In this document: positions 24,391 through 46,226 of the stretch, in pieces
Layout: the number at the start of each line of letters is the position of its first letter
Numbering within the stretch: position 1 is the stretch's first letter
The notes under the pieces: generated by a model
The model's input: only the letters and a program-made list of their open reading frames with translations
Told to the model about the DNA's origin: nothing
Databases searched by the model: none
Source of the DNA: an uncultured Phycisphaeraceae bacterium
GTDB taxonomy: Bacteria; Planctomycetota; B15-G4; JADJEK01
Assembly (NCBI GenBank): GCA_964580365.1
Contig: CAZOLL010000001.1
Coordinates: forward strand, 1-46,226
Direction: 5' to 3'
DNA length: 46,226 nucleotides
Made by a program: the position numbers and the translations under genes

Positions 24391-25098
24391 GTGGGGTACA
24401 CCTTCGACCTCTACGAGACGCGCGTGCGCGCGAACCTCATGGCGGACGCGACGGGCGCCGAGGATCACTGGCCGAACTCCCGCATCGACCCGATCATCAA
24501 CCGCTCGCGCCGCTGGCTGCAAGGCGAGCTGCTCGAGGCGTACGACTCCCAGTGGGACGTCGACGCGCAGCTCTCGGTCGCGAGCAGCGTGATCGCGCTG
24601 CCGACCGGCTTCATCACGGAGAAGGCGTTCTACCGCGGCGACCTCGCGGACCCGACGCGATGGGTCCAGTGCGAGATCCGTCACGCGACGTCGGCGCGCC
24701 GGCGCATCTTCCAGGCTGCGGTCACGTGGGCGGACAACCCGAACCCGTCGATCGAGACGTGGGTGCTCGTCGGCACCGACTTGAAGCCGCGCATGGCGCC
24801 GCCGACCGACGGGACGACGTACGTGCTCACGTACGCGAAGGAGCTCGTCGACCTCACCGGCACCGACGCCGAGACGATGCCCGACCGCTTCGCCGACATC
24901 GCGCTCCTCAAGGCGACGGCGGAGGCGGCGAAGATCGGCGGCGACGATCGCATGGCGCAGGACTTCGAGTCGCGCGCGCTGCGTGAGGTGCAGAAGCTGC
25001 GCGATCAGGCCGCGCACCGCTCGCTGTCCCGCGTCGAGGCCATCGAAGACGTGATGGGCTACGGCGGCGAGGACGACATGCAGACCTGGATGAGCTGA
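24391..25098 (+). CDS. Hypothetical head-tail joining candidate
   Basis: 235 aa. The call rests on position after the capsid gene only. Confidence 0.45.
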   Translation: MGYTFDLYETRVRANLMADATGAEDHWPNSRIDPIINRSRRWLQGELLEAYDSQWDVDAQLSVASSVIALPTGFITEKAFYRGDLADPTRWVQCEIRHATSARRRIFQAAVTWADNPNPSIETWVLVGTDLKPRMAPPTDGTTYVLTYAKELVDLTGTDAETMPDRFADIALLKATAEAAKIGGDDRMAQDFESRALREVQKLRDQAAHRSLSRVEAIEDVMGYGGEDDMQTWMS

Positions 25099-28000
25099 TG
25101 CCGAGCCAGACGAACTTCAAGCCGTTCGAGATCGGCGGTCTGCGCTACGGGCTGAACACGAAGGACCGGCCCGAGGACCTGCCGCCGGGCGCCGCGCAGC
25201 TCGCGTACAACGCCTGGCACTACCGCTCGCTCCGGCAGATGCCGGGCTTCAACCGCGTGATCAGCAAGCGGCCGTGGCTCGCGAACCTCATGCTGAACGG
25301 CGTGACACAGTACCTCGCGGCGCGGCTGTCGACGCCGAACACGCCGGCGAGCCTGAACCACGCTTCGATGCTCGCGAGCAACATCTTCTCGGCCGACATT
25401 CCGTTCGAGATCCAGGGCTTGCAGGAGAAGCAGACGCTCCTTTGGAAGGGGCAGAGCGGCGGCAGTACGTTCCTCACGCTCGGAAACAACGACGCCTACA
25501 TGCTCGGTCTGCGCTGGAACGCGACGATCGGCGGCTTCGAGCTGGTGTGGACGTGGCGCGATCCCACCGTCACGCAGCGCACGCTCACGTTCAACGCGAC
25601 CGCGCTCCTCCCGAACACGCCGTACTACGTGCGCGTGAGCGGCAACCGCACGACCGGGCAGGTGACGCTCGCGGTGTACACCACCGACGTCGAAACCTCG
25701 ACGGTCACGCTCGTCGGCACCGCGAGCGTGGTGATGGGTGTCGCGACGAATGCGTTCCCGCAGGAGCTCGGGTTCAAGAACTGGCTGTTCGTGGGCGCGA
25801 TGCGAATGGTGTCGCAGACGCGCGAGGTGAACGTCGCGCAGTTCAAGTTCCGCGGCAAGCTGCAAGAGCTGCGCTTCTGGTCGGGCGACATCAGCGCCGC
25901 GCCGAGCACGTACGGCTCGACCGAAATCTCGCACACGACGCCCGGCCTCGAGACGGTGTATCACCTCACCGACGTCGGGCCGACGATCTTCGTCGACTCG
26001 AAGGGCGCGACGCCGAACCTCTTCATTCAGCCGGTCGACGCGACGTGGAACGCTTCGCCGCTCATCGGAACCGGATCGTCGATCGAGCTCCAGGGCAACG
26101 TGCAGTACCTGCGCGTGAACGAGCCGGTGCTCTACCGCAAGCGCGACGTCGACACCGACAGCCGCTACCAGATGCTCGACGCATGGTCGGCGAGCGTGAT
26201 CGTGCGACTGAACGAGGTGCGCGAGTGCGCGATCCTTCACTCGGTCCACGCCTCGCAGAGCCGCGTTGATGCGTACGGCGGAAACGGCGCGTTCTCATTC
26301 TGGTCGGGCGAGGACGCCGCGGCGGCGACGCAGGCGCAGTGGGAGCTGCAAATCGCCGCGAACCCTGGCGGCGTCGACTACCAGTTCCGCGCGATCTTCT
26401 GGGTCTTCGACACCGCATGGCGCCGCTACGCGCTCGTGTCGACGCTGCCGGGCGCCGGCGTCGCGGCGAACACGACGTACGCGATTCTCTTCGGCCGCGA
26501 CAACGTCACCGGCGACCTGAACATGTGGATCAACGGGACGAACTACACGTTCGCCGCGTGGCGCGCGGGTGCGGTGCCGGCCGCGACGGACAACAACCCG
26601 CTCAACTCGTCGCGCCAGTACGGGCTCTTCATCGGCCGCGAGGTCGAGAAGATCATCAAGGCGAACAACAACCCCAACGACCCGGACGACATCGACGTCA
26701 CCTCCGGGTACGACGACCCGGGCCTCGTCGCGGCGAACACGGTCCTGCCGTTCTGCGGGCGCGTCGGGCACGTCGGGCTGTTCTCGGTCGCGCCGAGCCA
26801 GTTCCTGCACAACTACCTGCGCGTGAACCCGCTGACGAAGGCGACCGCGAAGTCGCTCCAGGGGATCTTGCTCTCGGCGTGGCCGATGAGCGCCGGCATC
26901 GGCAGCGTGCTCACCGACTACGGCAACGAGAACAACACGATCTCCTTCCGCGACGACGCCGACCACCTGCGCGGGCGCTCGCTGATCAAGACGCTGTCGC
27001 GCGGGCGCGTGACGTCGATCTTCCAGCACTCGTGGCGCGGCGACTCCGCGGACGAGACGAAACTGCTCGCCGCGCACGCCGGCGGGTGCGACGAGATCGA
27101 CACGACGAACAACAAGCTCGTGAAGTTCGTCGAGGGCTTCCGCAACGACGAGAACCGGCGCCTGTCGGTGGTGAAGTCGCAGGACACGCTCGTGCTGTGC
27201 TCCGGCTCGGGCCCGCTGATGCAACTCGCGAAGGACCAGCTCGTGCGCCTCGGGATGGAGGAGCCGATCGGTCCGTTCGCGTGGGGATTCACGCAGCAGA
27301 ACGAGCGCGCCGCGGTGCTCACCGAGGGCGAGTACGTCTACTACTGGGTCTTCTACAACAGCGTGCTCGACAAGGAGTCGCCACCGTCGAAGCCGATCCA
27401 CGTGCCGGTGCGGTTCAAGAAGACGAACGTGAGCTTCGGCTACGGCATCGAGGCGTTCCAGACCTACCCGTCGGTGCCGGGCACGGGCGCCTTCGGTTGG
27501 AGCAAGGACTCGCAGGCGGAGCCGTGGGATCTCACCGGCAACAACCGGCTGCTCAAGATCGCGGCTTGGGTGCAGCCGAAGGAGAGCGCGCCGGGTGGCG
27601 CGGCGCCGGCGGCGAAGTACAAGACCGCGCGCTTCACGAGCGGGGCCGGCGTGAAGGACAACCTGATCCGCAACGTCGACGACGTGAAGGTCGACGAGGT
27701 GCGCGCGATCGTCGAGGCGGACTGTCCGCGCGTCACGGTCGTCACCGCGCCCGACGGATCGTTCTCGCTCGAGGGCTGCTTCGCCGGCTCGAACGGGAAG
27801 ATCCGGCTGAACAACGACGCGAACACCACGGCGACGGCCGCGATCTTCGGCCTCACGATCAACACGACCTACTCCGGCACCGGCGTGACTAGCGACCTTC
27901 CGCTCCCGCCGTGCGGCGACACGCAGGCGACGCACCTCCGCCTGTACCGCACGCTCGCGAACGACGCCGACGCGCGCCTCGTGCTCGAGCTCCCGCTCGC

Positions 28001-29408: not shown

Positions 29409-29788
29409 CTCTCCGCGTTCCCAAGTTCGCCGTGCGTCGGTGGGGCGGTCCGAGGCCGGACGGCAGCATCGACAGCAAGGAGCTGCACCGGCACACGGAG
29501 CGATTCGCGACCGAGTTCGAGCGCATCACTGGCGAGATCGCGGATTCGGTTCCGGGCGACAAGCGGGACACCGTCACAGTCGTGTCGCGCGGCCCCGGCA
29601 CGAAGATCCGCGCCGCGCTTCCGAAGAAGATCCTCGAGCGGAAGCCGGACAGCTACATCGTCGTGCACCAGAACGGCGCGGGCGCGGTGTGGCCGGACCA
29701 GAGCTTGACCGACGGCAAGAACGTCGTGCTCAACACCGACGCCGCCGCGGGCGTGAAGTTCCGTCTGCTCGTGTACAGGGAACGGTAG
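29405..29788 (+). CDS. Hypothetical protein
   Basis: GTGA-coupled GTG at 29405. 127 aa. Confidence 0.6.
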   Translation: MTLRVPKFAVRRWGGPRPDGSIDSKELHRHTERFATEFERITGEIADSVPGDKRDTVTVVSRGPGTKIRAALPKKILERKPDSYIVVHQNGAGAVWPDQSLTDGKNVVLNTDAAAGVKFRLLVYRER

Positions 29789-29811
29789 ACTTCCGAGTCG
29801 GAGGCAAGGTC

Positions 29812-30267
29812 GTGGGCGATCATCAACGCGACAACGATTACCCGTTCGACCTGCAAGGTCCGCCGTTCGGCAAGTTCGCGTCGAAGAGTCAGCGGCCGAT
29901 CCAGAAGGACTTTTGGGCGCTCCAGCGGCAGGGCGTCCAGTACGCGCCGCAGTACGCCGTCGCCGGCCGGCAGGAGATGGCGAACGCGCGCGGCATCCGC
30001 AGCCAGATGGGCTCCGCGCTCGGGTGGAACAACGCCACGCCGGCGACGGGCGCCGCGGTCGCGTCGATGCGCGCGGGGATGGACTACCCGGGCATGTACA
30101 CGCAGGCGCAGCAGGCGTTCCAGGGTCAGCGCGCGTCGCTCCGCGACCAGTGGGCCGCGATGCAGCAGCGCAAGCGGAACTGGGACTTGCAGCTCCAACA
30201 GCTCCAGGTGTCGGCGGAGAACATCGCCGCGGCGAACGCGCAGGCGAAGGCGACGGCGGGGCTCTGA
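29812..30267 (+). CDS. Hypothetical internal-virion candidate
   Basis: GGAGG SD before the GTG at 29812. 151 aa, Gln/Ala-rich. Confidence 0.55.
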   Translation: MGDHQRDNDYPFDLQGPPFGKFASKSQRPIQKDFWALQRQGVQYAPQYAVAGRQEMANARGIRSQMGSALGWNNATPATGAAVASMRAGMDYPGMYTQAQQAFQGQRASLRDQWAAMQQRKRNWDLQLQQLQVSAENIAAANAQAKATAGL

Positions 30268-31693: not shown

Positions 31694-34600
31694 GTGCCGG
31701 GCATCGGCGACCAGTGGTACCAGCAGGGGTTGAAGCAGCAGCAGTGGCGCGCGCGACACGGCGACGAGCCGATGCCGCGCCCGTTGGACCCGCAGGCGAT
31801 CGGGCGCGCCGCCGCGCTCGAGGAGATGCGCCGCGAGGTCGAGGGGTGGGACCCGATCAGCCGCTCGCTCCTCGCGGGCTCGACGTCCTTCGCTGAAACC
31901 GCGAGCTTCGGGCTCCTCCCGCGGGAACGCATCTACCGCATGGCCGGCGGCGACCCCGAAATGGCGGCGCTCGCCGGGCAGGCGATCCGCGAGGACGAGG
32001 CGGCGCACCCGTGGACGGCCGGGCTCGCGTCGACGGCGGGCGGGCTGTACGGGATGACGACGGGCGCGGGCCTGATCTCGAAGGGCCTGTCGCGCACGGC
32101 GCTCCCGCTGGTGGGCCGGTACGCGCCGGAAGGCATCGCGAAGGGCCTTGCCGAGCCGATGACGCGGCAGCTCGCGCGCTCGGCGACGTCGTTCAGCGTC
32201 CAGCAGGCGGTGACGCGGGGCGGCGGGCAGATCGCCTACCGCTCGGCGACTGGGCAGCCGCAGGACTACCTCGAGTCCGCCGGAGAGGCGGTCCGCGGGG
32301 GCGCGCGCGGCGCGGTCGAGGGCGCGGTCTTCCCGATCGCGGGACAGGTGGCGCGGAACATCGCCGGCCGGGTGGTGCGGATCAAGCCGGGCATGCAGCC
32401 GACCCGGCTCCAGTCGATCGGGCGGGACGTGATCGGCGAGTCGGCGTTCTTCGCCGGTCTGTCCGCGGCGACCGCCGAACCCGGGCACCGGCTCGAGGCG
32501 GCGGGGCAGGGTGCGATCGCAGGCCCGCTCGCGTCGATCGGTTCGTGGGGCAAGAAGATCCGTGGTGAGGTGCCGCACGAGGGCCTGACGCCCGACGAGG
32601 TCGCCACGCTCGGCCCGCAGGTCGCCGAGGCCGAGGTCGCCGGCCGCGGGCTCCAGGGCGCGAACGACTTCCTGAACTCGACGGCCGCGCTCAAGAAGTA
32701 CGGGCCGGTGACGCCGGCGGCGCGCGCCGCGCTCCAGGCGGACCCGCAGCGGTTCGCCCGGCTCGACCCTTCGATGGACCGGGCGAAGGCGCCGGTGTTC
32801 CGGCCGGAGCGGGTCGCAGCCGCGCCGAACCCGAAGGTGCTCGCGGACGATCCGGTGGTGGGCTCGATCTACCGCGCCGAGACGACGCCGGCGGACTTCC
32901 GCGCGTTCGTGGATCGGCAGATCCCGTCGTTCCTGATGCCCTCCGAGCCGGACACGGTGCTGACGCCGAAGGAGAAGGCGACGCAGGCGGCGTTCGGCGA
33001 GCTCCCGCAGGAGGCGCTCCGCCGCGCCGGCGCCGACGTCATTCAAACGAAGCGCGGCACGATCGCGTTCTGGCCGGACCTCGTGTCCGAGGTGTTCCGC
33101 CACAAGGACAGCTCGAGCCGCGTCTACCTCGAAGGGCTGTTGAAGCGGCCGATCACGGGCAAGACGAAGTTCACGCACGGCGCGCTCGCGATGTCGATGA
33201 CCCGGCTCGCGAACAACGACGCGCTCGGCGAAGTGCTCGGGTACGGCGTCGGCCACGCGACGAAGACCGGAAAGGACGTCGCCATCACCGGCCGCGACGA
33301 GCAGGGGTACGAGGTCCGCACCGTCCTCACGACGCAGGAGAAGAAGCCCGAGGCGATCAAGGGCCTCATGCGCGCGGGGGCGAAGCGGATCGAGGTGCGC
33401 GACCCGACGCAAACGCCGGAGATCATCGGCGAGCGCGTGTCGACGGAGATCACGCCCGAGGGGCCGAAGCTGACCGGCGCGCCGGCGATCCCCGAGACGA
33501 CGACGCGGACCGAGCCCGGCCCGTCGCGAGAACTTCCTGGCAGGTTGATGTCTCGTCGTGCGGAAGATGCGCAGGAGATGCGCCGCCAGGAGCCGATGGC
33601 CGTCGACTCGAAGGGGCGCGTGTTCACGGTCGGGTTCGTCGCCTCCGGCCCGTCGCCCGGGCGCATGATCGAGGAGGTCTTCGGACGCCACGACACGCGC
33701 GAGGCGGCGCTCGCCGAGGTGGAGCGCGAGAACCAGACCAGCGCCACGAAGGCGCCGCTGACGGTGAAGCCCGGCCGCAACCCGCGGGAGTGGCTCACGG
33801 TCCGGCAGATCCCGTTCGGCGAGGTGGGCGGGTTGCACCAGCAAAAGGCGCTCGCGGACCGCGGCATGTGGGAGATCCAAAGTCGCGCCGCCGAGCAGCA
33901 GCAACGCGCGCTCGAGCGCGAGCTCGACCTCGCCCGCGAGCAGCAGCGACGCGCGCTCGAGCGCGAGCAGCAGATGGCGGAGATGCTCCCGCAGCCGGCC
34001 GGGCCGGGGCTTCCCGCGCCGCCGGAAATGAAGGCGCTGCCGCGCCCGAAGGGCGCGCTGATCCAGCACCCCGCGCATTTCATCGCCGGTGAAACCGGAC
34101 CCGCGCAGGTGACTGGGTCGCGGTCCCAGCCGCCCCGCGGCGCTGGCACGTCGCGCCGACGGCCGGCTCCCGAGGTCGCGAAGGCGCTCGGACGGCTCGA
34201 CGAGATCAAGGCGGGGCTGCGCGGCGGCACCATGAAGGCCGCGGACGTCCAGGGCGAGGCCCGGCAGCTCATGGGGCGCATCGACGAGATCGAGCGCGGC
34301 CAGCGGCTCGAGCGCGAGCCGGAGCGCATCGCGAAGCTGACGCACGCCGCGCCCGAGGCGGTGCAGGAGGGCGAGAAGTCGGTCCTGTACCCGAACGAGT
34401 TCGAGCAGGGCGGCGAGCGGTTCGGCGTCACCTACGCGGTCGTGCGCGACAAGGACATCGCCGTCTCGCACGACGACAAGACGCTGGCACGCAACCCGAA
34501 CTACCCGCGCGAGCTCCAGAACCGGAACCGCGAGCAGGACGGCCCGAAGATCGACGTGCAGGTGGCGGGGCTCCGCGAGGACCCCGGCCGCTATGCGCTG

Positions 34601-37600
34601 CCGTCGACGAGCGGCGACCAGGGACCGCCGGTGGTCTGGCGCGACGCCGAGGGCAAGATCGGCAAGCCGGGCGCGCTCTACGTGCTCGCCGGCAACGGCC
34701 GCATGATCGCGCTGCGCCGCTTCGCGCGGAAGTCGTTCGCCTACTCGACCGCGATGGCGGAGCAGGCGAAGAAGCTCGGCATCGACGTGAAGGAGCCGAA
34801 GGGCAAGGTGCTCGTCCGCATCCTCGACGACATGCCGTTCAAGGATGCGGCGAAGCTCGTCGGCAAGTTCCAGGGCGGCTCGAGCGCCCCCGAGGGTCGG
34901 TTCGAGCGCAGCCGCGGCGCGGCCGGAAAGGTCGGCCTCGAGAAGATGGGCGACGTCGTCGTGAAGTGGGCGCCGGATGGGCCGCTGAACGCGACGAACC
35001 TCGAGACGTTCGAGAAGAACAACCCCGACCTCGTGCGCAAGGTGTTCCCGGGCGCAGAGTCGGGCGTCGGTGTGGACGCCGAGGCGCGCGCGCAGCGGTA
35101 CAAGGACGTGCTGACCGGGATGCTGCCGCTCGACCTGCTCGACGCCGCGGCGCGGCTGCCGGAGCAGGTGCAGCAGGACATCTACGAGATGGCGCCGCAG
35201 CTCCACCGCTTCGCGGCTCTCGTGGTCGAGGGCAAGATCGACGATCGGTGGGACTTCATCCCCGACATGGCGCGCGCGATCACGGTGCTGCCGGAGATCC
35301 GCGAGCAGTTGAAGAACCTGAACCGCGCCGCGATGGGCGCGCTCCAGATCGAGCTCTTCAAGGGCGGCGGCGGGTCGTCGCTGCGCGACGTGGTGAGGGC
35401 GCTCGAGGGGCTCGGCGACGATCGCGCGCGCATGACGCTCGGCATCGCGATCGGGTGGAGCAAGGACCGCGACTCGGTCGGCTACATGGCGCGCCGCATC
35501 GCGGCGTACACGCAGCTCGCGCTCGACGGGTCGGCGAAGGCGCCGGCGACGATGTTCAAGATGTCGCACGAGACGAAGACCGGCGCGGTCGACTACGTCG
35601 CGGACTTGTTCAACAAGACGGTCAGCGAGCAGGCCACCGCTTTCCTCGAGCGCGTGCGCGCGAACCGCCGTACCCTCGATGCGGGCGTCGCGCTCGGAAA
35701 GCTCCAGAACAAGCTCTTCCCCGGCGTCGAGACGCTGAGTCCGAAGAACAAGCAGCACGCGGCCTACATCAAGTTCTACGACGAGATGATGGGCAAGGTT
35801 CGCGCGGGCGGCACGCTGGAGGAGCACGTCACGAACGCACTCGCCACCAAACCGACGAAGAACGCCGACTGGCTCGAGCTGCTCGAGGGATTCCTCCGCG
35901 GCGAGGCCAGCGAGGGAGAACTCCATGACATCGCAGCCCGGCACGAACCGTCTCGACCGACTCGCGAGCGCGGCGAGCGAAGCGAACCTGAACCCGAACG
36001 AGCTCCCGCTGGCGATGACGCCGCGGCGCGAGAGCCTGAACGACCTGTCGAGGATCGCGGCGAGCGAGAGCCCGGACATCGAGGAGCTGACGCAGGAGGC
36101 GCTGATGGACCTCGAGCGGAGCGGGCAAAGCGAATCAAGCACACCTACGTCCCCGCGCGAGCAGCAAGTGCTGAACGAATCCCTTCTGACCTTGTCCGAC
36201 ACCTAGACCAGCACCAGGTCGACGCGATCTCGCACGCTCTCGAGGCGCTGGACGCGGCCGACCCCGGGGCGCGCGGCTTCGTGATCGCGGACGGCACCGG
36301 CGTCGGGAAGACGCGCGAGATGCTCGCGGTCGCGGAGAAGTTCCGCCGCGAGGGCAAGGTGGTGGTGCTCGTTGGCCCGGCGAAGATCGGCCCGAAGGGC
36401 AAGCCGATCTACAAGAGCTCGCTGGCGAGCGAGGCGGAAGAGCTCGGCATCGCGCTCAACTGGGTGGCCGGCGGCACCGCCGCGCCCGGCCGCGTCAACA
36501 CGACTTCGTACTTCTGGCTCGACAAGGTCAAGGTGCCGAGCGGGGCGATCCTCCTGTTCGACGAGGCGCACGCGCTCAAGAACGCCGACTCCGGCCAGAC
36601 GAAGGCGGCGCTCGAGCTGATCAGCAAGGCCGACGCCGTCCTGTTCGCGTCCGCGACGATCATGGACAAGGCGGTGCACCTGCCGTACTTGGCGCGCGCT
36701 GGCGCGCTCGAGGGGCGCACCGTCGCCGAGCAGCTCGCGCACCTCGGGATGCGCCTCGAGGTCGAGCACCGCATCAACAAGAAGACGGGCAAGCCGTTCA
36801 AGCTCGAGCGGTGGATTCCCGACCCGAGGGCGCGAAGCCCGGACGGGAACCTGCGCGGCAGCCTCGAAGTGACGCGCCGCCAGGGAGAGCTCGTGCGGCG
36901 CATGGTCGCCAACGGCCGCGTGATCAAGCGCGAGATCGGCATGGAAGGCGTCTCGGTCACCGTCGACAACATCAAGCTCGGCGAGGCGTGGCAGGCCGTC
37001 GAGAACAAGCTGCGCGAGAAGTTCGACGGCAAGGTCTTGCAGATGCACGAGAGCATCCAGCAGGAGCCGTTCAAGATCCCGCACGTCGTCAAGATGGTGT
37101 CGGAGGAGCGCGCCGCCGGCCGCTCGGTGATCATCTTCGCCGCCCGCGTGAATGAGTCGGCCGCGGTGAAGCGCCGCTACACGAAGGAAGGCGAGGTCAT
37201 CGAAGAGGTCGTCCACCAGACCGAAGGCACGTTGAAGACGTTGCGCGAGAAGTTGATCGAGGCCGGCATCCCCGAGGCAGAGATCGGAGAGATTCACGGT
37301 GGCGTGAAGGCCGATGTGCAGGAGCGGAGTCGGGTCGAGTTCCAGAGCAACAAGCGCAAGGTGATCATCGCGACGGCCGAGTCTGGCGGGGCCGGCATCA
37401 ACCTCGACGACACGACGGGCAAGTTCCCGCGCACGATGATCGTGATGACGGCGCCGTACTCCGGCGTGACGAACGCGCAGGCGTGGGGCCGCATCTGGCG
37501 CCTCAACACGAAGGGCGACGCGCGGATTCGGTACGTCTACTCGGACAGCGCGACCGACGTGCGACGCGCGGCGATCGTCACCAAGAAGATGCTCCACCTC

Positions 37601-38191
37601 GGCGCGGCGCTCCAGGGCGAGCACAAGCGGCTGATGGAGGTCGTCGACGGGATGACCGACATCTCCGACGCGGCGATCGACCAAGTCCTCGGCGAAACCG
37701 TCGCGCACTCGAGCAAGCCGGACACGGTCGGCAAGCTGCCGGTCGCGCCGCTCGACACCGCCGCGGAGCGGGGCCTGATGAACGAGCTGCGCTACAAGTG
37801 GGCGAAGGGCGACAAGAACGCCCCGGTCCGCGTGAAGGCGCGCGTGCTCGACGCGGCAAAGGTCGTGGTCGAGAAGCTGCGCGGCATGGGCATCGACGCC
37901 ACGCTGCGCGAGTCGGACGGCATGGTCACGCTGAACCGCAAGTTCGCGAAGGAAGCCGAGCCGAGGGCGCAGGACATGATCCGAACCGAGAGCGTCGAAA
38001 CCGCGTCGGCCGAGTCGCTGCGCGAGATGGTGAAGCGGTCCGAGGAGATCAGCCCGCTCGAGCAGATCCAGGCGAAGCTCGCGATTCGGCTCGCCGAGCG
38101 GCCGGATGACGCCGAGTCGATCGCGCCGGTGCTCGACGAGCTGTCGGCGAAGATCGAGTCGCTGTACCGGAAGGGCAAGAAGCCGTGCTGA
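31694..38191 (+). CDS. Giant (2165 aa) polyvalent protein: glycine-zipper N-terminus, ParB/DdrB-like domain, SF2 (SNF2/strawberry-notch-like) helicase
   Basis: A single open frame. YPRELQNRNRE...VLAGNGRMIALRR is ParB-like. ADGTGVGKT (motif I), DEAHALKN (motif II) and QAWGRIWR (motif VI) mark the helicase. Codon bias drops between 35925 and 36206. Confidence 0.6.
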   Translation: MPGIGDQWYQQGLKQQQWRARHGDEPMPRPLDPQAIGRAAALEEMRREVEGWDPISRSLLAGSTSFAETASFGLLPRERIYRMAGGDPEMAALAGQAIREDEAAHPWTAGLASTAGGLYGMTTGAGLISKGLSRTALPLVGRYAPEGIAKGLAEPMTRQLARSATSFSVQQAVTRGGGQIAYRSATGQPQDYLESAGEAVRGGARGAVEGAVFPIAGQVARNIAGRVVRIKPGMQPTRLQSIGRDVIGESAFFAGLSAATAEPGHRLEAAGQGAIAGPLASIGSWGKKIRGEVPHEGLTPDEVATLGPQVAEAEVAGRGLQGANDFLNSTAALKKYGPVTPAARAALQADPQRFARLDPSMDRAKAPVFRPERVAAAPNPKVLADDPVVGSIYRAETTPADFRAFVDRQIPSFLMPSEPDTVLTPKEKATQAAFGELPQEALRRAGADVIQTKRGTIAFWPDLVSEVFRHKDSSSRVYLEGLLKRPITGKTKFTHGALAMSMTRLANNDALGEVLGYGVGHATKTGKDVAITGRDEQGYEVRTVLTTQEKKPEAIKGLMRAGAKRIEVRDPTQTPEIIGERVSTEITPEGPKLTGAPAIPETTTRTEPGPSRELPGRLMSRRAEDAQEMRRQEPMAVDSKGRVFTVGFVASGPSPGRMIEEVFGRHDTREAALAEVERENQTSATKAPLTVKPGRNPREWLTVRQIPFGEVGGLHQQKALADRGMWEIQSRAAEQQQRALERELDLAREQQRRALEREQQMAEMLPQPAGPGLPAPPEMKALPRPKGALIQHPAHFIAGETGPAQVTGSRSQPPRGAGTSRRRPAPEVAKALGRLDEIKAGLRGGTMKAADVQGEARQLMGRIDEIERGQRLEREPERIAKLTHAAPEAVQEGEKSVLYPNEFEQGGERFGVTYAVVRDKDIAVSHDDKTLARNPNYPRELQNRNREQDGPKIDVQVAGLREDPGRYALPSTSGDQGPPVVWRDAEGKIGKPGALYVLAGNGRMIALRRFARKSFAYSTAMAEQAKKLGIDVKEPKGKVLVRILDDMPFKDAAKLVGKFQGGSSAPEGRFERSRGAAGKVGLEKMGDVVVKWAPDGPLNATNLETFEKNNPDLVRKVFPGAESGVGVDAEARAQRYKDVLTGMLPLDLLDAAARLPEQVQQDIYEMAPQLHRFAALVVEGKIDDRWDFIPDMARAITVLPEIREQLKNLNRAAMGALQIELFKGGGGSSLRDVVRALEGLGDDRARMTLGIAIGWSKDRDSVGYMARRIAAYTQLALDGSAKAPATMFKMSHETKTGAVDYVADLFNKTVSEQATAFLERVRANRRTLDAGVALGKLQNKLFPGVETLSPKNKQHAAYIKFYDEMMGKVRAGGTLEEHVTNALATKPTKNADWLELLEGFLRGEASEGELHDIAARHEPSRPTRERGERSEPEPERAPAGDDAAAREPERPVEDRGEREPGHRGADAGGADGPRAERAKRIKHTYVPARAASAERIPSDLVRHLDQHQVDAISHALEALDAADPGARGFVIADGTGVGKTREMLAVAEKFRREGKVVVLVGPAKIGPKGKPIYKSSLASEAEELGIALNWVAGGTAAPGRVNTTSYFWLDKVKVPSGAILLFDEAHALKNADSGQTKAALELISKADAVLFASATIMDKAVHLPYLARAGALEGRTVAEQLAHLGMRLEVEHRINKKTGKPFKLERWIPDPRARSPDGNLRGSLEVTRRQGELVRRMVANGRVIKREIGMEGVSVTVDNIKLGEAWQAVENKLREKFDGKVLQMHESIQQEPFKIPHVVKMVSEERAAGRSVIIFAARVNESAAVKRRYTKEGEVIEEVVHQTEGTLKTLREKLIEAGIPEAEIGEIHGGVKADVQERSRVEFQSNKRKVIIATAESGGAGINLDDTTGKFPRTMIVMTAPYSGVTNAQAWGRIWRLNTKGDARIRYVYSDSATDVRRAAIVTKKMLHLGAALQGEHKRLMEVVDGMTDISDAAIDQVLGETVAHSSKPDTVGKLPVAPLDTAAERGLMNELRYKWAKGDKNAPVRVKARVLDAAKVVVEKLRGMGIDATLRESDGMVTLNRKFAKEAEPRAQDMIRTESVETASAESLREMVKRSEEISPLEQIQAKLAIRLAERPDDAESIAPVLDELSAKIESLYRKGKKPC
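35925..36206 (+). CDS. Embedded +1-frame ORF (93 aa) inside the linker of the giant ORF
   Basis: GGGAGA SD 5 nt before the ATG. Third positions are almost all G/C in this frame but only about half G/C in the giant-ORF frame over the same bases. Confidence 0.5.
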   Translation: MTSQPGTNRLDRLASAASEANLNPNELPLAMTPRRESLNDLSRIAASESPDIEELTQEALMDLERSGQSESSTPTSPREQQVLNESLLTLSDT

Positions 38192-40770: not shown

Positions 40771-41021
40771 CGCTTGATCCTGATGCGGGTCCCGCCCGGA
40801 AACTCGATGAAGCTCCGGTCGCGGTGCGACGGGCAGAAGAACTCCGAGCGCGAGTAGCCCGCGTCGCCATCATCTGAGAACACGTCGGTGCGGCAGCCAC
40901 ACCGAAGGCTGAACGACCAAAGCGGCTTGAGGGGCGTGACCAACCCGAGCGCCTCCGCCTTGCGGTGCAGCAGCGAGGCCGCGGTGAGCACGACGGACGC
41001 GAGGAAGCCGCGGCGGTTCAT
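40647..41021 (-). CDS. Secreted protein with a twin-arginine (Tat) signal peptide
   Basis: MNRRGFLASVVLTAASLLHRKAEA, ATGA-coupled. The 3' end overlaps the convergent gene by 124 nt, so the true stop is uncertain. Confidence 0.5.
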   Translation of the reverse strand: MNRRGFLASVVLTAASLLHRKAEALGLVTPLKPLWSFSLRCGCRTDVFSDDGDAGYSRSEFFCPSHRDRSFIEFPGGTRIRIKRYDMPPIEVRDLNRRYRSMSVSSSASGFSGTRMSIERPPSL

Positions 41022-41323
41022 CGCTTCGGAATCTCGATCAGCGGGCACTCCGCGATCTCGTTCGGGATGAACAAGCACGCCCACCAGCGATCGTTGTACA
41101 CCCGCGCGCTCGCGATCGTGCGGTTCCAGTCGACGGCCTGCCCCATCACGTCCTCGGCCTCGTTGGGGTCGACGCGCTGAACCGCCGCGCGGACCTCCTC
41201 GATCTGCGCGACCGTCGCGGGGGCCGCGAGCTTCTCGGTGAGGGCGGCGATCGGCCCGGCGATGAGAAACAGGGCGGCGAGTCCGGCGACCACGAAACCG
41301 ACGAACAGCAATGCGTCTTTCAT
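41018..41323 (-). CDS. N-terminally membrane-anchored protein
   Basis: GGAGG SD. MKDALLFVGFVVAGLAALFLIAGPIAAL. Confidence 0.6.
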   Translation of the reverse strand: MKDALLFVGFVVAGLAALFLIAGPIAALTEKLAAPATVAQIEEVRAAVQRVDPNEAEDVMGQAVDWNRTIASARVYNDRWWACLFIPNEIAECPLIEIPKR

Positions 41324-41340
41324 CCGATCCTCCGAAGTGG

Positions 41341-41386
41341 TGCGGTATATTGTACCACACCGCGCGCGCCGTGCTAGGCTGAATCC
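41341..41386. promoter_or_regulatory. Divergent promoter/operator region
   Basis: The motif TGCGGTATATTGTACCAC lies at 41341-41358 (TACAAT on the minus strand). On the plus strand, TAGGCT-N6-ATG precedes the HTH gene, which would be leaderless. Confidence 0.5.
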
Positions 41387-41791
41387 ATGCCCCGCCCGTT
41401 CACGAAGATCGACACGCTCCTCGGCACCGCGCCGCTGCGCGGACGTGCTGGCGCGCGCGCGTTCGCCCGCGGCCGGTACGACCTCGAGTGGCTGTCGATG
41501 AAGACCGGGATGTCGTGCTGGACACTGCGCGAGATGCAAACCGGCCTTCGCCGGCGCCCGCGCTGGCCCTCGATCGAGATGGCGCGCATCATCGCCGCTG
41601 CGATGAAGTGCACCGAGGTCGAGCTCGTCGAGGAGCTGGCGGCGATGCGCGTGCGGTGGCACCTCCACTGCTACACCGTCCACCAGTCGACGGGCGTGGA
41701 CGACCAGATGAAGTGCGGCACGCCGGCGAACCCTCGTCAGCCGCCGGTGATCGCTGCGATGCAAGCTCTCGCTGACCACAAGGAGGAGTGA
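41387..41791 (+). CDS. XRE-like helix-turn-helix regulator
   Basis: LEWLSMKTGMSCWTLREMQTGLRRRPRWPSIEMARIIAAAM fits an HTH_XRE helix pattern. Confidence 0.5.
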   Translation: MPRPFTKIDTLLGTAPLRGRAGARAFARGRYDLEWLSMKTGMSCWTLREMQTGLRRRPRWPSIEMARIIAAAMKCTEVELVEELAAMRVRWHLHCYTVHQSTGVDDQMKCGTPANPRQPPVIAAMQALADHKEE

Positions 41792-42114
41792 TGTACGTCG
41801 TGTCCCAGGTCGAGCCGCTCCACGACAACGTGCTCGTGAAGCCGGAGATGGAGCCCGAGAAGGTCGGGGTGATCATCATGCCCGAGCAGTCGCGGCGCGA
41901 GCGCGCCGAGGGCGTCGTCATCGCGTGCGGCCCCGGTCGTCGCGGCGTGAACGGCGAGCTGATCCCGATGTCGGTGAAGGTCGGAGACAACGTGCTCTTC
42001 GGGAAGTACAGCGGCGCCGAGCAGGAAATCGGCGGAGAGAGCTACCGCATGATCCAAGACACCGAGATCATCGCGATCATCAAGGCGGTTCCGAGCGAGG
42101 AGGTTACGGTCTGA
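41791..42114 (+). CDS. groES: GroES/Cpn10 co-chaperonin homologue
   Basis: VEPLHDNVLVKPEMEPEKVGVIIMPE...GVVIACGPGRRGVNGELIPMSVKVGDNVLFGKYSGAE matches the Cpn10 pattern. AAGGAGGAG SD. Confidence 0.75.
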   Translation: MYVVSQVEPLHDNVLVKPEMEPEKVGVIIMPEQSRRERAEGVVIACGPGRRGVNGELIPMSVKVGDNVLFGKYSGAEQEIGGESYRMIQDTEIIAIIKAVPSEEVTV

Positions 42115-43580
42115 TGTTCCTCTCCACACGTGAAGGTGCGGCGTTCGCGGCGGGACTCGCCAGCGGCGCGCGCGAGAACATCCTCGTCGACAACGTCCCG
42201 GTGCGGCCGATGCTCGCCGGCGGATGGAAGAAGCACCCGTTCTGCCCCGGCTGGATGACGGCGAACGGCTACCTCGCGGACGAGAAGGCGTGGAGCTCGA
42301 CCGTCGCGAAGCTCGTCGCGTTCGAGGTGCACCAGCACGACTCCGGCCTCACGCTCGCGGACTTGTACCACACGAGCGGACCGGCACAGACCAACGCTTG
42401 CGTGGTCGAGCTGCTCGACATCGCGCTGCGCTTCGAGCTGTACCCGGGCGCCGGCTACGCGCTCACGTGGGGCACACCGCTCCCGATCGAGGAGTACGCG
42501 ACCGGCGTTCCGCCGCAGGTCACCGACGAAGACAGGAACGGGAGGTGGTATCCCGACGTCATCTACACGGGGCAGGCCGGCTCGCCGCGCAACCTCTTCG
42601 TGCCCGCGTTCTTCGACTGCGCCAAAGACCTCCGCCGCCTCGCCCACGGGACGCTGTTCGGTGCGTTCCAGGTGATGCGTCCGATTCAGCGCGTGAACTC
42701 GATCGGCGAGCTGGCGATCGGCGTGTGGTGGGACCCGAGCAAGACGTGGACGAAGCGCGCGTTCCCGGTGTACGACCGGAAGTACGGAGAGCGCGACGTC
42801 GTGCTCGACGGGTACAGCACGAACCACGTCGAGGTCGCCGAGCTTGCGTGCCTCTTCCTCGCGCTCCGCGACCCGCGCAGCTACCGGCAGCTCAAGGCGC
42901 TCGCGCTCGCCTTCCTCCGGTGGGACTGGTACTGCGGCGACGGCGGCGACGAGAGCAAGATCGGCCGCGGCTCGATTCCGTACGACAACAACTCCCGCAT
43001 GAAGGGCCGCTCGCTGATCCTGTGTGCGTGGGCGTTCCTCGCCGCACACGCGGCCGGTGACCAGGAGTTCAAGGACTACGTCGCTCTGCGCGCTGCGGCG
43101 CACGTGGCGAAGATCGCGGCGCTGTGGGACGGCAAGTTCACGCCGTCCGCGACCGCGCCGGACGGGCGGCACCTGTCCGTGCCGTGGGACGCGACGTGGA
43201 TGGTGTCGCTCATCGGGTGGGGCGCCGCGCTGTGCTCTCGCTGGATGGACACGCCGGGCGCCAGCCCGCTCGCGAACCGCGTCGCGGACTGGCTCGAGCG
43301 CCTGTTCGACGCCGGCCCGACGTTCGGGAAGCCCGGCGCGCTGCCGATCGACGTGCCGGCCTCCGGCATCGCCGACCTCGGCGGGGCGACGTGGTACTAC
43401 CCGCCGGGCGCGCCCGAGGCGAAGAACGAGAACATCCTGATCGGGACGGCGTCGTGGTGCTCGCACGTGCTCCGCGCCGTCGGGGGTCCCTCGCCGCTGC
43501 TCGACGCGCTCCGCGCTGCCGGCGAGCACTACCACTACCCGCTCGTGGACAGCACCCCCGTCATTGAGTTCGGCGGCTGA
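42114..43580 (+). CDS. Hypothetical 488-aa protein (possible tail-associated enzyme)
   Basis: TGATG-coupled to groES. Trp/Cys-containing globular composition. Confidence 0.6.
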   Translation: MFLSTREGAAFAAGLASGARENILVDNVPVRPMLAGGWKKHPFCPGWMTANGYLADEKAWSSTVAKLVAFEVHQHDSGLTLADLYHTSGPAQTNACVVELLDIALRFELYPGAGYALTWGTPLPIEEYATGVPPQVTDEDRNGRWYPDVIYTGQAGSPRNLFVPAFFDCAKDLRRLAHGTLFGAFQVMRPIQRVNSIGELAIGVWWDPSKTWTKRAFPVYDRKYGERDVVLDGYSTNHVEVAELACLFLALRDPRSYRQLKALALAFLRWDWYCGDGGDESKIGRGSIPYDNNSRMKGRSLILCAWAFLAAHAAGDQEFKDYVALRAAAHVAKIAALWDGKFTPSATAPDGRHLSVPWDATWMVSLIGWGAALCSRWMDTPGASPLANRVADWLERLFDAGPTFGKPGALPIDVPASGIADLGGATWYYPPGAPEAKNENILIGTASWCSHVLRAVGGPSPLLDALRAAGEHYHYPLVDSTPVIEFGG

Positions 43581-43607
43581 TGAGTTCGGACAAACGCGCT
43601 GGCGCAC

Positions 43608-43681
43608 GTCGCGCGAGTAGTTCAGCGGCAGAACCCCGCAAACCGCGGGATGTCGTCGGTTCGAATCCGACCCGCGCGACC
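43608..43681 (+). tRNA. tRNA-like element (probably degenerate or pseudo-tRNA)
   Basis: Canonical T-arm GTCGG-TTCGAAT-CCGAC. D-arm GTTC-AGCGGCA-GAAC. 8-bp acceptor-like stem GTCGCGCG/CGCGCGAC. The anticodon arm is CCCGC-AAACC-GCGGG with only a 5-nt loop, and the junction spacings are non-canonical. Confidence 0.4.
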
Positions 43682-43818
43682 TCTGCGCCGGCGCCCTTCT
43701 TCGTGCCGTGGAACCCGTTCGAACCGCCATCGGTTCCGCCGGGAACCGTGCTCGTCGATCGCCACGAGTCCCTCGCGGGCTGGTGGTTCGTCAAGGAGAG
43801 GCGCAAGAAGCCGCGCCA

Positions 43819-43845
43819 TTGATCCCCGTTCCGGGCCTGTAGAAT
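43819..43845 (+). promoter_or_regulatory. Candidate sigma70-type promoter upstream of the tailspike gene
   Basis: TTGATC-N15-TAGAAT. The spacer is short. Confidence 0.35.
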
Positions 43846-43881
43846 CCCTCCGCGGCGTCGCCACCGCCCGGAGGGATTCGC

Positions 43882-45828
43882 ATGGCCGGTGCTGCGCGGG
43901 GCATGTTCTACGGGCGGCGACAGGTCACAGGGGATGCGACGGACCCGGTCGAGTCCGGGTACTCGGTGGGGCCGGGCGGACAGTTCGAGGGGATCACGGC
44001 CGCGGCGATTCAGGCCGCGCACGACGCGCTCCCCTCCTCCGGCGGCATCATTCAGCTCTCGCCGGCGACGTACACGCTCGAAGCGAACGTCACCATCACT
44101 AAGCCGAACGTGTGGATTCGCGGCTCGCGCGGCGCGAAGCTCGTCCCCACCGGCTCCGGCTCGATCGGCGCGTTCCAGTTCAGCGCCGAGGACTGCCGCC
44201 TCTCCGGCATCAAGGTCAGCGTCGAGAGCGCGGTCAACGACCAGCGCATGATCTCCGCCGGCTCCGGCGCGAACAACTTCGTGTGCGAGGACGTGCTGAT
44301 CGACTGCGTGACTGCGGCCGGCTCGGGGTCGAACCCGATGCACGGCATCGACATCCGCAACACCTTCGGCGCGCGCATCCGCGGCTGCGACATCTACCCC
44401 GCGAAGGGCTTCCGCCCGTCGTACACGCTGCTCAACAGCGACATCCGCATGAGCGACGTCCAGATCCGCACGCCGTCCGCGACGTTCGGCGGGACGCAGC
44501 GCGGGTGCTACGAGGCGATCCGGTGGGAAGGCAACCGCTACCAGCGCCTCACGAGCGTCTCGGTCCTCGGCCTCGGCACGCTCACGACGGACGAGTGCAA
44601 TGAGGTCGTCGTCATCAAGGGCGACGTCACGAAGACGGTGTCGGGCGGCGACTACGCCGGCCTCAAGATCAAGGATCTCACGATCGCGAAGTGCGCGTCG
44701 CCGAAGCTGCTCTCGCTGTACGGCGTGGTCGGCTTCCAGATGACCGAGGTGCACCTCGAGGACCCGCTCGGTGCCATTGCGGCGGCGGGAGAAGCGGCGC
44801 TGTTCATCACGTCGGAGGACGACACCTCGACCGTCGGCGACGAGAGCAAAATCTGCGGCGTCGGCGAGATCAACGACATCGTGTTCGAGAACGCGGCGAC
44901 CGGCGCCGGCGTGTGCGGGTACTTCAAGGACGGAAAGAAGATCGGTGTCGCGAACGTCCAGGTGCACGCGCCGACGAACGGCCCGACGAACATGTTCATG
45001 GTGAACATCGACCGCGTGCGCATCCTCACGGTCGGGAAGAACATCCTGAACGGCGACGAAACGAACACGATGATGGGATGGGAGTTCGAGTGCGCCGCCG
45101 CGCCGCAGGCGAAGGGCCTCTACTTGCGCGGCCCGTGGGAGCACAGCTCGCTGCTCGTCGCGCCCTACCCGCCGCGCGAGCCGGCGATCCTGTGGGCCGG
45201 CGGCGCCGGCTCGATCTACGAGGATGGGTCGGAGTTCTACGGCCACAACCTCGGCAACGGCACGATCCCGTTCGCCGCGCGGCCGCGCCCGCTGATCGAC
45301 AGCTCCGGGCTCGGCGTGACCGTCGCTGGCAACGTCGTGAACGTGCCGACGGTGACGACGCTCGTCGGCACCGCGAGCGGCTCGGCGAACTACGCGACGA
45401 AGATCGTCGCGAACAAGCTGAACCGCCTGCTGTGCGGCTTCGGCTACTCGCAGCCGCTTCTCGCGCACAACGGTGGAACGCCCGCGGGCGACGGCTCGGT
45501 CGCGGCGGTGGTGACGGCGGCGAACTTCAACACCGAGATCCAAGAGATCGAGAAGAAGATCAACGAGTTCATCGACATGCCGAAGTCGGCCGCGGGCGTG
45601 CGGAAGTTCCACGCGACGCGCATGAACGGCGTCGGCGGCGCGGGCGCGGTGGCGGCGTTCACCAACCTCACCGGCGGCACCGCGGTCGCGACCGGCGTGC
45701 TCGTGGCGATCTCGGACGCGACGACCGCGAACAACGTGCTCGCGACGTTCATCTCGCTCATCGAGGCGATGGGCGGATACCTCGCCATCTCGAACCAGAG
45801 TGGGCACCCGAGCGGCGGCAACGCCTGA
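43882..45828 (+). CDS. Tailspike/depolymerase with a right-handed beta-helix (pectate-lyase-like) fold
   Basis: GGIIQLSPATYTL...VTITKPNVWIRG and repeated G-x-N/D-x-hydrophobic rungs. 648 aa. Last gene before the junction. Confidence 0.6.
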   Translation: MAGAARGMFYGRRQVTGDATDPVESGYSVGPGGQFEGITAAAIQAAHDALPSSGGIIQLSPATYTLEANVTITKPNVWIRGSRGAKLVPTGSGSIGAFQFSAEDCRLSGIKVSVESAVNDQRMISAGSGANNFVCEDVLIDCVTAAGSGSNPMHGIDIRNTFGARIRGCDIYPAKGFRPSYTLLNSDIRMSDVQIRTPSATFGGTQRGCYEAIRWEGNRYQRLTSVSVLGLGTLTTDECNEVVVIKGDVTKTVSGGDYAGLKIKDLTIAKCASPKLLSLYGVVGFQMTEVHLEDPLGAIAAAGEAALFITSEDDTSTVGDESKICGVGEINDIVFENAATGAGVCGYFKDGKKIGVANVQVHAPTNGPTNMFMVNIDRVRILTVGKNILNGDETNTMMGWEFECAAAPQAKGLYLRGPWEHSSLLVAPYPPREPAILWAGGAGSIYEDGSEFYGHNLGNGTIPFAARPRPLIDSSGLGVTVAGNVVNVPTVTTLVGTASGSANYATKIVANKLNRLLCGFGYSQPLLAHNGGTPAGDGSVAAVVTAANFNTEIQEIEKKINEFIDMPKSAAGVRKFHATRMNGVGGAGAVAAFTNLTGGTAVATGVLVAISDATTANNVLATFISLIEAMGGYLAISNQSGHPSGGNA

Positions 45829-45838
45829 GAAATCGCTC

Positions 45839-45873
45839 TTGACCGGCTGCGCCGATGCGGTATTATGTACCGC
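45839..45873 (+). promoter_or_regulatory. Sigma70-type promoter with palindromic operator motif (rightward early operon, leaderless)
   Basis: TTGACC-N16-TATTAT-GTACCGC-ATG. The motif TGCGGTATTATGTACCGCA lies at 45856-45874. Confidence 0.65.
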
Positions 45874-46226
45874 ATGGCGACAACCCACATCTTCCACGCG
45901 AGCGAGCTGCCGCTCATCGCGACGAACCCGGCCGCGTGGTCGCTCAAGCGCGAGGCCGGCGTCTTCTCCGACTCGGAGCCGGCCGCGCTCGGCCGCGCGT
46001 TCGCGCGCGCGATGGAGCTGGCGTGCAAGGTCGGCCGCGCGAAGGTCGACCTCGAGAAGGTGCGCGAGGAGTTCCAGGTCCCGATGGAGGACCTGCGCGA
46101 GCTGTGGGACCTCGTGAGCTACGACCCGGCGGGCTGGACGGCGGAGATGCCGTTCCACATGCGCTGGCCCTGCCCGGACGACAGCGGTGACACGATGGAG
46201 GTTCACTGCCGCGTCGACCGCGTGCG
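45874..46226 (+). CDS. Cas4/RecB-family PD-(D/E)XK exonuclease, N-terminal part; wraps the junction and continues in 3..764
   Basis: ATG at 45874 lies 7 nt after the -10 box TATTAT. The frame runs off the window end (MATTHIFHASELPL...WPCPDDSGDTMEVHCRVDRV) and matches the frame of ORF 24..764 once the 55-bp overlap is removed, giving about 353 aa in total. Confidence 0.8.
   Translation, partial: MATTHIFHASELPLIATNPAAWSLKREAGVFSDSEPAALGRAFARAMELACKVGRAKVDLEKVREEFQVPMEDLRELWDLVSYDPAGWTAEMPFHMRWPCPDDSGDTMEVHCRVDRV
46172..46226. repeat. Terminal direct repeat, copy 2 (circular-closure overlap)
   Basis: Identical to bases 1-55. Confidence 0.95.

Follow-up and report, generated by a model that had tools for sequence, protein, structure and literature searches.

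Contig CAZOLL010000001.1 (assembly GCA_964580365.1) was analysed over its full 46,226 nucleotides (nt), a stretch that we refer to as the window. Among its late genes is an open reading frame (ORF) of 2165 amino acids (aa), hereafter called the giant. In this single polypeptide a lineage-specific N-terminal module (N-module) precedes a block related to the ParB-like domain of phage P1 DdrB and a strawberry-notch-type (Sno-type) SWI2/SNF2 ATPase of helicase superfamily 2 (SF2). The giant is a further member of a class already on record, the phage polyvalent proteins, and it comes from a previously unsampled phage lineage. An earlier sequence-only reading of the same DNA had proposed a polyvalent, virion-delivered counter-defence protein; this is the right frame, within which we infer packaging and function.

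Results

The giant ORF is a genuine gene

A long ORF alone is weak proof of a gene here because the window DNA is 69% GC. Stop-poor DNA of this kind does yield very long spurious frames, and one such frame of 2308 aa overlaps the giant on the opposite strand. Codon-position GC content separates the two. The giant has GC1/GC2/GC3 values of 0.70/0.48/0.93, similar to those of other window genes, whereas the antisense ORF has values of 0.90/0.52/0.71 and consists of 35% Arg+Leu, which marks it as a high-GC shadow ORF. Moreover, the giant has three domains with profile support, and a collinear full-length ortholog (P0004) on an independent contig is flanked by the same genes. All of the motifs quoted in the sequence-only reading are found in the giant: GLASTAGGLYGMTTGAGLISKG (aa 110–131), YPRELQNRNRE (aa 937–947), VLAGNGRMIALRR (aa 997–1009), ADGTGVGKT (aa 1532–1540), DEAHALKN (aa 1623–1630) and QAWGRIWR (aa 1929–1936). 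The ORF, which begins 3 nt after the stop codon of the upstream gene, is therefore a genuine gene, as that reading had taken it to be.

The middle of the giant is a DdrB-type ParB block

The ParB/DdrB-like domain that had been seen by eye is supported by profiles. The Pfam family ddrB-ParB (PF18763) matches the giant with an E value of 4.5e-11 and 43.4 bits against a cut-off of 27.6, and the match covers profile positions 3–119 of 121. C-terminal to this core is a helical extension of ~330 aa, within a conserved block of ~600 aa. The corresponding PHROGs match, phrog_5143, is a family without functional annotation. In an alignment of 11 sequences (A5), the helical extension and the motifs YAVV..SH, NPxYPxxLQxRxR, GPP, GN(G/H)R and LVR are held in common. 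The giant has GNGR at aa 1000–1003, the G, N and R of which are invariant across the 11 sequences, so that the predicted active-site Arg of the ParB/Srx pocket is intact. For the lineage-specific Asp/Asn at the end of strand 2 and the conserved Tyr of the extra helix, the alignment offers candidates in N135, which hardly varies, and in Y138 and Y218, which are invariant or close to it (alignment numbering).

The relationship to P1 DdrB is direct. The A5 hidden Markov model (HMM) matches DdrB at aa 32–429 with 278 bits, and pairwise BLASTP of the giant against DdrB gives an E value of 2e-4 across the motif region. The first ~95 positions of this HMM take in a helicase C-terminal tail, and matches confined to positions 2–94 were not counted as ParB. 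In the AlphaFold2 (AF2) model of the block, made from seven sequences, the ParB core has a predicted local distance difference test (pLDDT) score of 70–86 and a beta-beta-alpha-beta-beta-alpha-alpha-beta pattern. Foldseek of this model against BFVD returned viral models annotated as DdrB-like or as 'large polyvalent protein associated', with E values down to 3.7e-9 over ~580 columns. Against PDB it found no solved structure, with nothing below E 0.78; floppy helices dominate the model.

The identity of a partition ParB, with ParBc or a helix-turn-helix (HTH) domain, ParA and parS, was considered and rejected: a Pfam search of the giant gave neither ParBc nor HTH at E <= 1, and the scanned ORFs, which cover the small ones in part, yielded no ParA. 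A separate observation is that conservation around the DdrB-type ParB domain extends over a unit of ~400–600 aa, several times the length of the 121-position PF18763 (P1 ddrB corresponds to 24542–27529 of record L099).

The C-terminal third contains a Sno-type SWI2/SNF2 ATPase

The sequence-only reading had also proposed an SF2 helicase in SNF2/strawberry-notch style, and had suggested Pfam families as a check on both domains. AAA_34 is above its cut-off (37 bits against 27) and ResIII is at its cut-off (22.6 against 22.5), but Helicase_C_4 falls marginally under (29.0 against 30.5) and the ParB part answers to ddrB-ParB in place of ParBc. Helicase_C is likewise marginally under threshold. In PHROGs the region matches phrog_62 and phrog_16 ('DNA helicase'). 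When the helicase-region profile is compared with solved structures, the nearest are SsoRad54 (E 2e-6), SNF2h and CHD4, which places the enzyme in the SWI2/SNF2 clan. SF2 motifs I (GTGVGKT), II (DEAH), III (SAT) and VI (QAWGRIWR) are intact and are invariant in three aligned sequences, and a helical insert separates the two RecA-like lobes. The helicase is 34–41% identical to the helicases of other giants.

The N-terminal module and the absent domains

The N-terminal ~700 aa have just two homologs, P0004 and P0005, among 1.84 billion representative proteins. Residues 1–355 are predicted to be mostly helical, and small alpha/beta domains follow. An AF2 model built from three sequences for the first 760 aa has a mean pLDDT of 47.7, and Foldseek against BFVD returned nothing below E 0.04. 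The 'glycine-zipper-like hydrophobic stretches' noted near the N-terminus turned out to be Gly/Ala-rich and charge-poor (aa 101–300 are 32–34% G+A, with few charges) and not membrane-like: before aa 1639 no 19-aa Kyte–Doolittle window exceeds 0.9. Membrane helices in this region are accordingly rejected on hydropathy.

Between the ParB block and the helicase the sequence is strongly charged (aa 1401–1500 contain 42% charged residues and 11 Pro). Sno ATPases have a specific winged-helix domain at the C-terminus. The tail of the giant after the helicase has no family match; it matches P0004 up to a terminal Gly-Lys-(Lys/Arg)-Pro-Cys. Pfam shows nothing else in the giant at E <= 1, whether methyltransferase or peptidase, and a whole-protein sequence search against PDB gave no match. 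The HExxH motif of zincin metallopeptidases (MPTases) is missing from both the giant and its 861-aa partner. The statement that no methyltransferase is recognisable holds for the giant, and a motif-level test of all six frames of the window found neither the amino-methyltransferase motif IV, [DNS]PP[YFWH], nor the PCQ motif of C5-methyltransferases. The phage thus appears to lack a canonical DNA methyltransferase gene.

Sister phages share the chassis but not always the helicase

Orthologs of the giant lie on two other contigs, L097 (47.8 kb) and L098. The L097 order is major capsid protein/153/240/1453/173/179/607/giant/843/128/exonuclease/RecT/SSB, where numbers are protein lengths in aa. 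The L097 giant, P0004 (2050 aa), aligns collinearly with the window giant from the N-module to the C-terminus, ParB block and helicase included, at 30–35% identity. The L098 ortholog, P0005 (7002–11990, 1662 aa), combines the N-module with the ParB block and lacks the helicase, and directly after it is a homolog of the partner, 50% identical. The order of tail protein, small ORFs, giant and partner is the same in all three phages. The window and L097 have the helicase and L098 does not; it thus acts like a module that can be gained or lost while the chassis stays conserved.

The partner is the best-conserved protein of this block (48–50% identical in L097 and L098). From the overlap of the two genes, the giant is predicted to be translationally coupled to it. 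The junction DNA CC(A/G)TGCTGA is kept in the three sister phages (window 38180–38191; L097 16145–16153; L098 11982–11990). Each of the three giants, including the helicase-less one, ends Pro-Cys-stop, the overlapping GTG or ATG is the start codon of the following gene, and the protein after each giant has Pro-Cys inside its first nine residues. Translational coupling and a Cys-dependent contact are both possibilities for this conserved junction.

No match to the partner was found in Pfam, PHROGs, NCBIfam or PADLOC, and PDB gave chance-level matches only. Profile–profile comparison (hhalign) matched it to the C-terminal region of the unrelated helicase-bearing giant of locus L026 (probability 92%, E 5.7e-7, 286 columns), a Rosetta-stone hint that giant and partner form one functional unit. 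The partner was also tried as the LPD38-type C-terminal module of two other giants, P0002 and P0003, and this was rejected (hhalign probability <= 17%).

The helicase belongs to a wide family of giants

A three-sequence helicase profile found the family at 43 IMG/VR loci and in 51 cases on genome or metagenome-assembled genome (MAG) contigs, with ~50 full-length matches. A single-sequence scan of IMG/VR returned no relatives, and a profile query was required. Word-indexed protein searches, saturated by low-complexity words, gave 3, 0 and 2 matches. The best helicase matches (40–41% identity) are on GC-rich contigs binned with Chloroflexota, and the family sits within open frames of 660–5986 aa.

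In a Pfam census of 14 helicase-bearing giants, AAA_34 was found in 12, Helicase_C_4 in nine (E <= 1e-4) and ddrB-ParB in five; SLT (a lytic transglycosylase domain), LPD38, RadC and ART-PolyVal were found in two each, and InPase, Portal_Mu, DarA_C and Methyltransf_23 in one each. N6_Mtase was found in none of the 14. Across a larger set, 13 of 53 giants have the ParB block, before or after the helicase (model matches to the helicase tail only are excluded). P0002 (3712 aa) lies at the end of a structural module with an SU10-type adaptor, before an integrase, and P0003 (3649 aa) at the end of a structural module before an M15 endolysin; both have HExxH.

In the majority of giants above 2000 aa, the 100-aa window that is richest in Gly/Ala and poor in charge falls within the first 5–15% of the protein. 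A side observation concerns the other end. Many helicase-bearing giants have one strongly hydrophobic segment (Kyte–Doolittle mean > 1.6) ~200–400 aa before the C-terminus, for example at aa ~3418 in P0002, ~4306 in L015, ~3384 in L017 and ~3270 in L047. The N-terminal Gly/Ala-rich stretch and the C-terminal hydrophobic segment are a recurrent composition of these giants (L001–L060) without detectable sequence homology.

Genome and neighbouring genes

An exact 55-bp direct terminal repeat (1–55 and 46172–46226) identifies the window as a circularly assembled complete genome of ~46,171 bp. No match was found in tblastn and megablast searches of 50,697 phage records with the whole giant, its helicase, the partner, the major capsid protein or 24 kb of DNA, which indicates an uncultivated lineage. 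The features of the genome are collected in Table 1.

Table 1. Features of the window and of the giant, with positions counted from the first nucleotide of the window.
Feature	Position	Strand	Remarks
PD-(D/E)XK exonuclease, 357 aa	45865-46171 joined to 1-764		Spans contig junction; single terminal stop
RecT	941-1966		Downstream of exonuclease
SSB-like gene	2367-2774		Downstream of RecT
Early block	5.3-13.9 kb	-	Includes primase-like DUF3560 protein
Single plus-strand block	14.0-45.8 kb	+	TerL, portal, major capsid protein, then tail protein through 648-aa protein
Beta-rich tail protein, 1436 aa	25098..29408	+	Opens conserved block that ends with giant and partner
Antisense ORF, 2308 aa	29276..36202	-	Overlaps giant
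Charged coiled-coil-like protein, 473 aa	30269..31690	+	Hydrophobic N-terminal segment; candidate internal/ejection protein
Giant ORF, 2165 aa	31694..38191	+	GTG start; assigned as phage polyvalent protein
N-terminal lineage-specific module, aa ~29-709	31778..33820	+	Alignment A4; homologs P0004 and P0005 only
Gly/Ala-rich, charge-poor stretch, aa ~84-300	31943..32593	+	Composition; holds the 'glycine-zipper' motif of the sequence-only reading
DdrB-like ParB block, aa 808-1423	34115..35962	+	Pfam, phrog_5143, alignment A5, A5 HMM against DdrB, AF2, BFVD
Pfam ddrB-ParB core, aa 907-1043	34412-34822	+	PF18763
Charged, Pro-rich, low-complexity linker, aa ~1400-1490	35891..36163	+	Composition
Sno-type SWI2/SNF2 (SF2) ATPase, aa ~1490-1980	36161..37633	+	AAA_34, Helicase_C_4, ResIII, Helicase_C, phrog_62, phrog_16, PDB profile matches
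C-terminal tail, aa 1981-2165	37634..38188	+	Conservation with P0004
Partner gene, 861 aa	38185..40770	+	Start overlaps giant's stop by 7 nt (GTGCTGA)
GroES-like co-chaperonin	41788-42114		In late operon; phrog_3188, E 2.5e-17
tRNA-Val (anticodon AAC)	43610-43681		Between 551-aa and 648-aa ORFs

The giant had been placed among late structural genes, and it is there. TerL, an SU10-type portal (borderline, 29.9 bits against 30) and the major capsid protein are encoded upstream; PDB sequence matches for the portal were at chance level. No sigma-70-like promoter or plus-strand terminator-like site was found between 29000 and 45839, and a promoter-like site lies at 45839–45866, directly before the exonuclease gene. 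The 1436-aa tail protein is 35–36% identical along its full length in L097 and L098; no family match was found for it in the libraries searched, and PDB gave chance-level matches. Sheath, tube and tape-measure families were not detected in the genome, and on this negative evidence the genome is compatible with a podovirus.

The slot of the 473-aa protein is filled by a 607-aa protein in L097 and a 594-aa protein in L098. These counterparts have no similarity to it by tblastn (E <= 1e-4), and it has no family match in the libraries searched. The ORF at 29440–30267 calls for a separate remark. Its N-terminal ~115 residues resemble an out-of-frame Arg/His-rich translation, and the true start is probably further downstream. 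Conservation of this ORF in L097 and L098 is confined to its C-terminal half (from ~aa 131).

The region 40965–45828 comprises small ORFs, GroES, a 551-aa protein, tRNA-Val and, at the end of the plus-strand block, a beta-helix-like (tailspike-like) 648-aa protein. Its four largest ORFs have no similarity in the syntenic contig L097, and we regard the region as a variable insertion. The 551-aa ORF after GroES was considered as GroEL and rejected, with no Pfam or NCBIfam match.

Discussion

Comparison with known systems

Phage-type polyvalent proteins were described in 2017 (Iyer, Burroughs, Anand, de Souza and Aravind, J Bacteriol, PMC5512222). Their domains include DdrB-ParB, SWI2/SNF2 ATPase and LPD38, their genes adjoin virion genes, and their packaging and injection were argued from late-gene context; a few have a strawberry-notch-like ATPase (PMC5512222). 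The giant resembles this class in several respects. It is a single polypeptide joining unrelated modules (ddrB-ParB, Sno-type SF2 ATPase and an N-module of ~700 aa). Its ParB domain and its SWI2/SNF2 ATPase are both hub domains of the polyvalent network. It lies among late virion genes in a co-directional operon with synteny in L097 and L098. Finally, it is mosaic: relatives have the ParB block on either side of the helicase, and one ortholog has no helicase. It differs in having neither a zincin MPTase, a frequent though not obligatory hub, nor an N6-adenine methylase. Moreover, no described family, LPD or other, takes in its N-terminal 700 aa or the 861-aa partner. A methylase–helicase dyad has been described as the rule among polyvalent proteins (PMC5512222). 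The Sno-type helicase of the phage giants is uncoupled from methylases, which refines that published picture.

The Dar proteins of P1 are the experimental point of reference. DdrB and DarB are among them. As internal head proteins they are ejected along with the DNA, and they shield it against type I restriction (PMC12810830). As judged by sequence comparison, only the ParB block of the giant is truly homologous to a Dar protein, namely DdrB. The homology extends for ~400 aa with NPxYPxELQxRxR, GNGR and LVR in common, and both genes are late. However, DdrB (995 aa) has its ParB block at the N-terminus and a metallopeptidase predicted at the C-terminus, and it undergoes processing ahead of packaging, whereas the block in the giant is internal, fused to a helicase and without a peptidase. 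P1 is, in addition, a myovirus in which DarA, Hdf, DdrA and Ulx are separate partners, and no similarity to Dar proteins besides DdrB was detected in the window proteins scanned.

DarB (2255 aa) is a packaged methyltransferase–helicase and, like the giant, a very large protein with an ATPase of the SF2/SNF2 clan. It provides the functional precedent of a packaged, co-injected helicase guarding DNA in cis against type I restriction (PMC12810830). Nevertheless, the giant is not a member of the DarB family. DarB has N6_Mtase/Eco57I and SNF2-rel_dom domains, whereas the giant has AAA_34, a Helicase_C_4 match marginally under its cut-off and no methylase; BLASTP between the two gives E 0.09, DarB scores 16.8 bits on the helicase-family HMM, and the helicases are non-orthologous. 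As a matter of kinship, the analogy to P1 drawn in the sequence-only reading thus applies to the ParB block and not to the helicase.

Bcep22-like podoviruses offer a parallel in genome organization. Bcep22 gp75 (4602 aa) and JC1 gp69 are giant helicase-containing proteins encoded by the last large gene of the morphogenesis module, in high-GC genomes with RecT-type recombination genes. JC1 gp69 (4515 aa, DarB-like) was represented by 51 unique peptides in mass spectrometry of purified podovirus virions (PMC9144972). Sequence comparison nonetheless detects no relationship: the helicase HMM gives only 1.2 bits on Bcep22 gp75, the ParB block is not significant, the sole BLASTP match is a marginal one of 146 residues between the C-terminal lobes of the helicases (E 0.01), and the window giant is half as large. 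The arrangement had been called unusual, but the class has been known since 2017 (PMC5512222), helicase giants occur at 43 IMG/VR loci and on more than 10 MAG contigs, and the Bcep22-like giants stand at the same place (PMC9144972). What the new lineage does provide is a natural pair of helicase-plus and helicase-minus sisters, L098 being the minus. If the giant is indeed packaged, its compactness and this pair would together offer a cleaner system than P1 DarB or the 4500-aa proteins of the Bcep22 type for the study of a co-injected helicase and of DdrB-type ParB function.

A proposed packaged protein that would protect entering DNA

The domain identities, the intact motifs, the late-operon context, the conserved synteny and the modular presence or absence of the helicase are established. 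On these grounds we consider it probable that the giant is a phage polyvalent protein that is made late, is most likely packaged in the capsid and is expelled into the cell with the leading DNA. In the division of labour that we propose, the N-module, probably together with the coupled 861-aa partner, would serve uptake into the virion and transit of the tail. For the DdrB-type ParB block we propose binding of nucleoside triphosphate (NTP) and/or DNA. The Sno-type SWI2/SNF2 ATPase would translocate on the entering double-stranded DNA, where it would push aside or outpace complexes of host restriction or of other defences that target DNA, and the genome would be protected in cis without methylation. 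Packaging and injection are suggested by the genomic context and by relatives, whose fusions to SLT (2), Portal_Mu (1), DarA_C (1), LPD38 (2) and ART-PolyVal (2) suggest a link to the virion. DNA translocation and the anti-defence role are likewise putative. If packaging is confirmed, this would be a compact injected ATP-driven DNA translocase (2165 aa in a 46-kb genome) without a methylase or processing peptidase.

Several points weigh against this proposal. The presence of the giant in virions is something that we infer, and no homology of the giant to a characterised ejection protein was detected. The model of the N-module is of low confidence (pLDDT 48) and has no fold match. Many polyvalent proteins have an MPTase/HExxH processing domain, and none is found in the giant. 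DarB, the sole experimentally studied packaged helicase, is not its ortholog. To our knowledge, the biochemical role of DdrB-type ParB domains has not been established even in P1. Furthermore, no replicative helicase was recognised among the genome ORFs scanned, which leaves room for a role of the giant in replication or recombination.

A bolder version of the packaged protein is conceivable, though we hold it to be doubtful. ParB and Sno-ATPase might together constitute a distinct methylase-independent, virion-delivered device, in which ParB would load at the end of the entering DNA, to work there as an NTP-dependent clamp or nickase, and the translocase would clear restriction or defence complexes from the genome or actively reel it in. 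The N-module and the 861-aa partner would be a conserved scaffold with swappable effectors.

Alternative explanations

The giant might instead be mainly structural. As an ejectosome or internal core, its helical N-region and the 861-aa partner would form a conduit or plug of the short tail, and ParB and helicase would be dispensable passengers of marginal importance. This would account for the L098 ortholog, which is without the helicase although N-module, ParB block and partner gene are all retained; it would also suit the higher conservation of the partner (48–50% identity) than of the giant (30–35%), the recurrence of the N-terminal Gly/Ala-rich stretch among unrelated giants and the position of the gene after the tail protein and the charged internal-protein candidate. 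However, the giant has no transmembrane-like segment, and its fold matches to ejection or tape-measure proteins are all non-significant (E >= 0.04). The ATPase motifs and the ParB Arg are all kept in orthologs of 30–35% identity, which argues for selection on enzymatic function. We therefore regard a mainly structural role as unlikely.

Equally unlikely, in our view, is a giant that is never packaged. It would then be a late or middle intracellular enzyme, with the helicase employed in replication, in recombination alongside exonuclease, RecT and SSB, or in transcription, and with the ParB fold nicking or degrading host DNA or segregating phage genomes. The Exo/RecT/SSB module in the genome fits such a role, as does the fact that the primase-like DUF3560 protein is the only replication candidate and no replicative helicase was seen in the scanned ORFs. 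ParB-fold domains may, moreover, be nucleases or NTPases (PMC5512222). Against this, the giant is embedded in the structural operon and by its start–stop overlap coupled within it, and the promoter-like site at 45839–45866 separates the recombination and early genes from it. The ParB domain is of the DdrB type, with no ParBc/HTH partition architecture detected and no ParA among the ORFs scanned, and relatives occur as fusions with portal, SLT and DarA_C domains. SNF2 and Sno ATPases are double-stranded-DNA translocases, not replicative helicases.

It is very improbable that the giant is a phage-borne defence or superinfection-exclusion factor, a helicase–nuclease directed against competing phage or plasmid DNA in the manner of the SNF2-containing systems DISARM, Zorya and Hma. 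Their helicases (DrmD, ZorD and HmaA) have the same generic SWI2/SNF2 ATPase core, matches to them do appear in PADLOC and NCBIfam, and defence systems include ParB-like nucleases (PMC5512222). The scores, however, are 20.7 bits for HmaA, 19.4 for ZorD and 14–18 for DrmD, a generic SF2 level compared with the NCBIfam DrmD cut-off of 610. The partner genes of these systems are absent, a scan of ORFs showed neither an integrase nor a lysogeny module among those covered, and the gene is phage-encoded in a virion operon, not in a moron or defence island.

The chance that the ORF is an artefact, either a fortuitous frame in GC-rich DNA or an assembly chimera, is negligible, as this is refuted by the full-length ortholog, the shared neighbours and the codon-position GC content.

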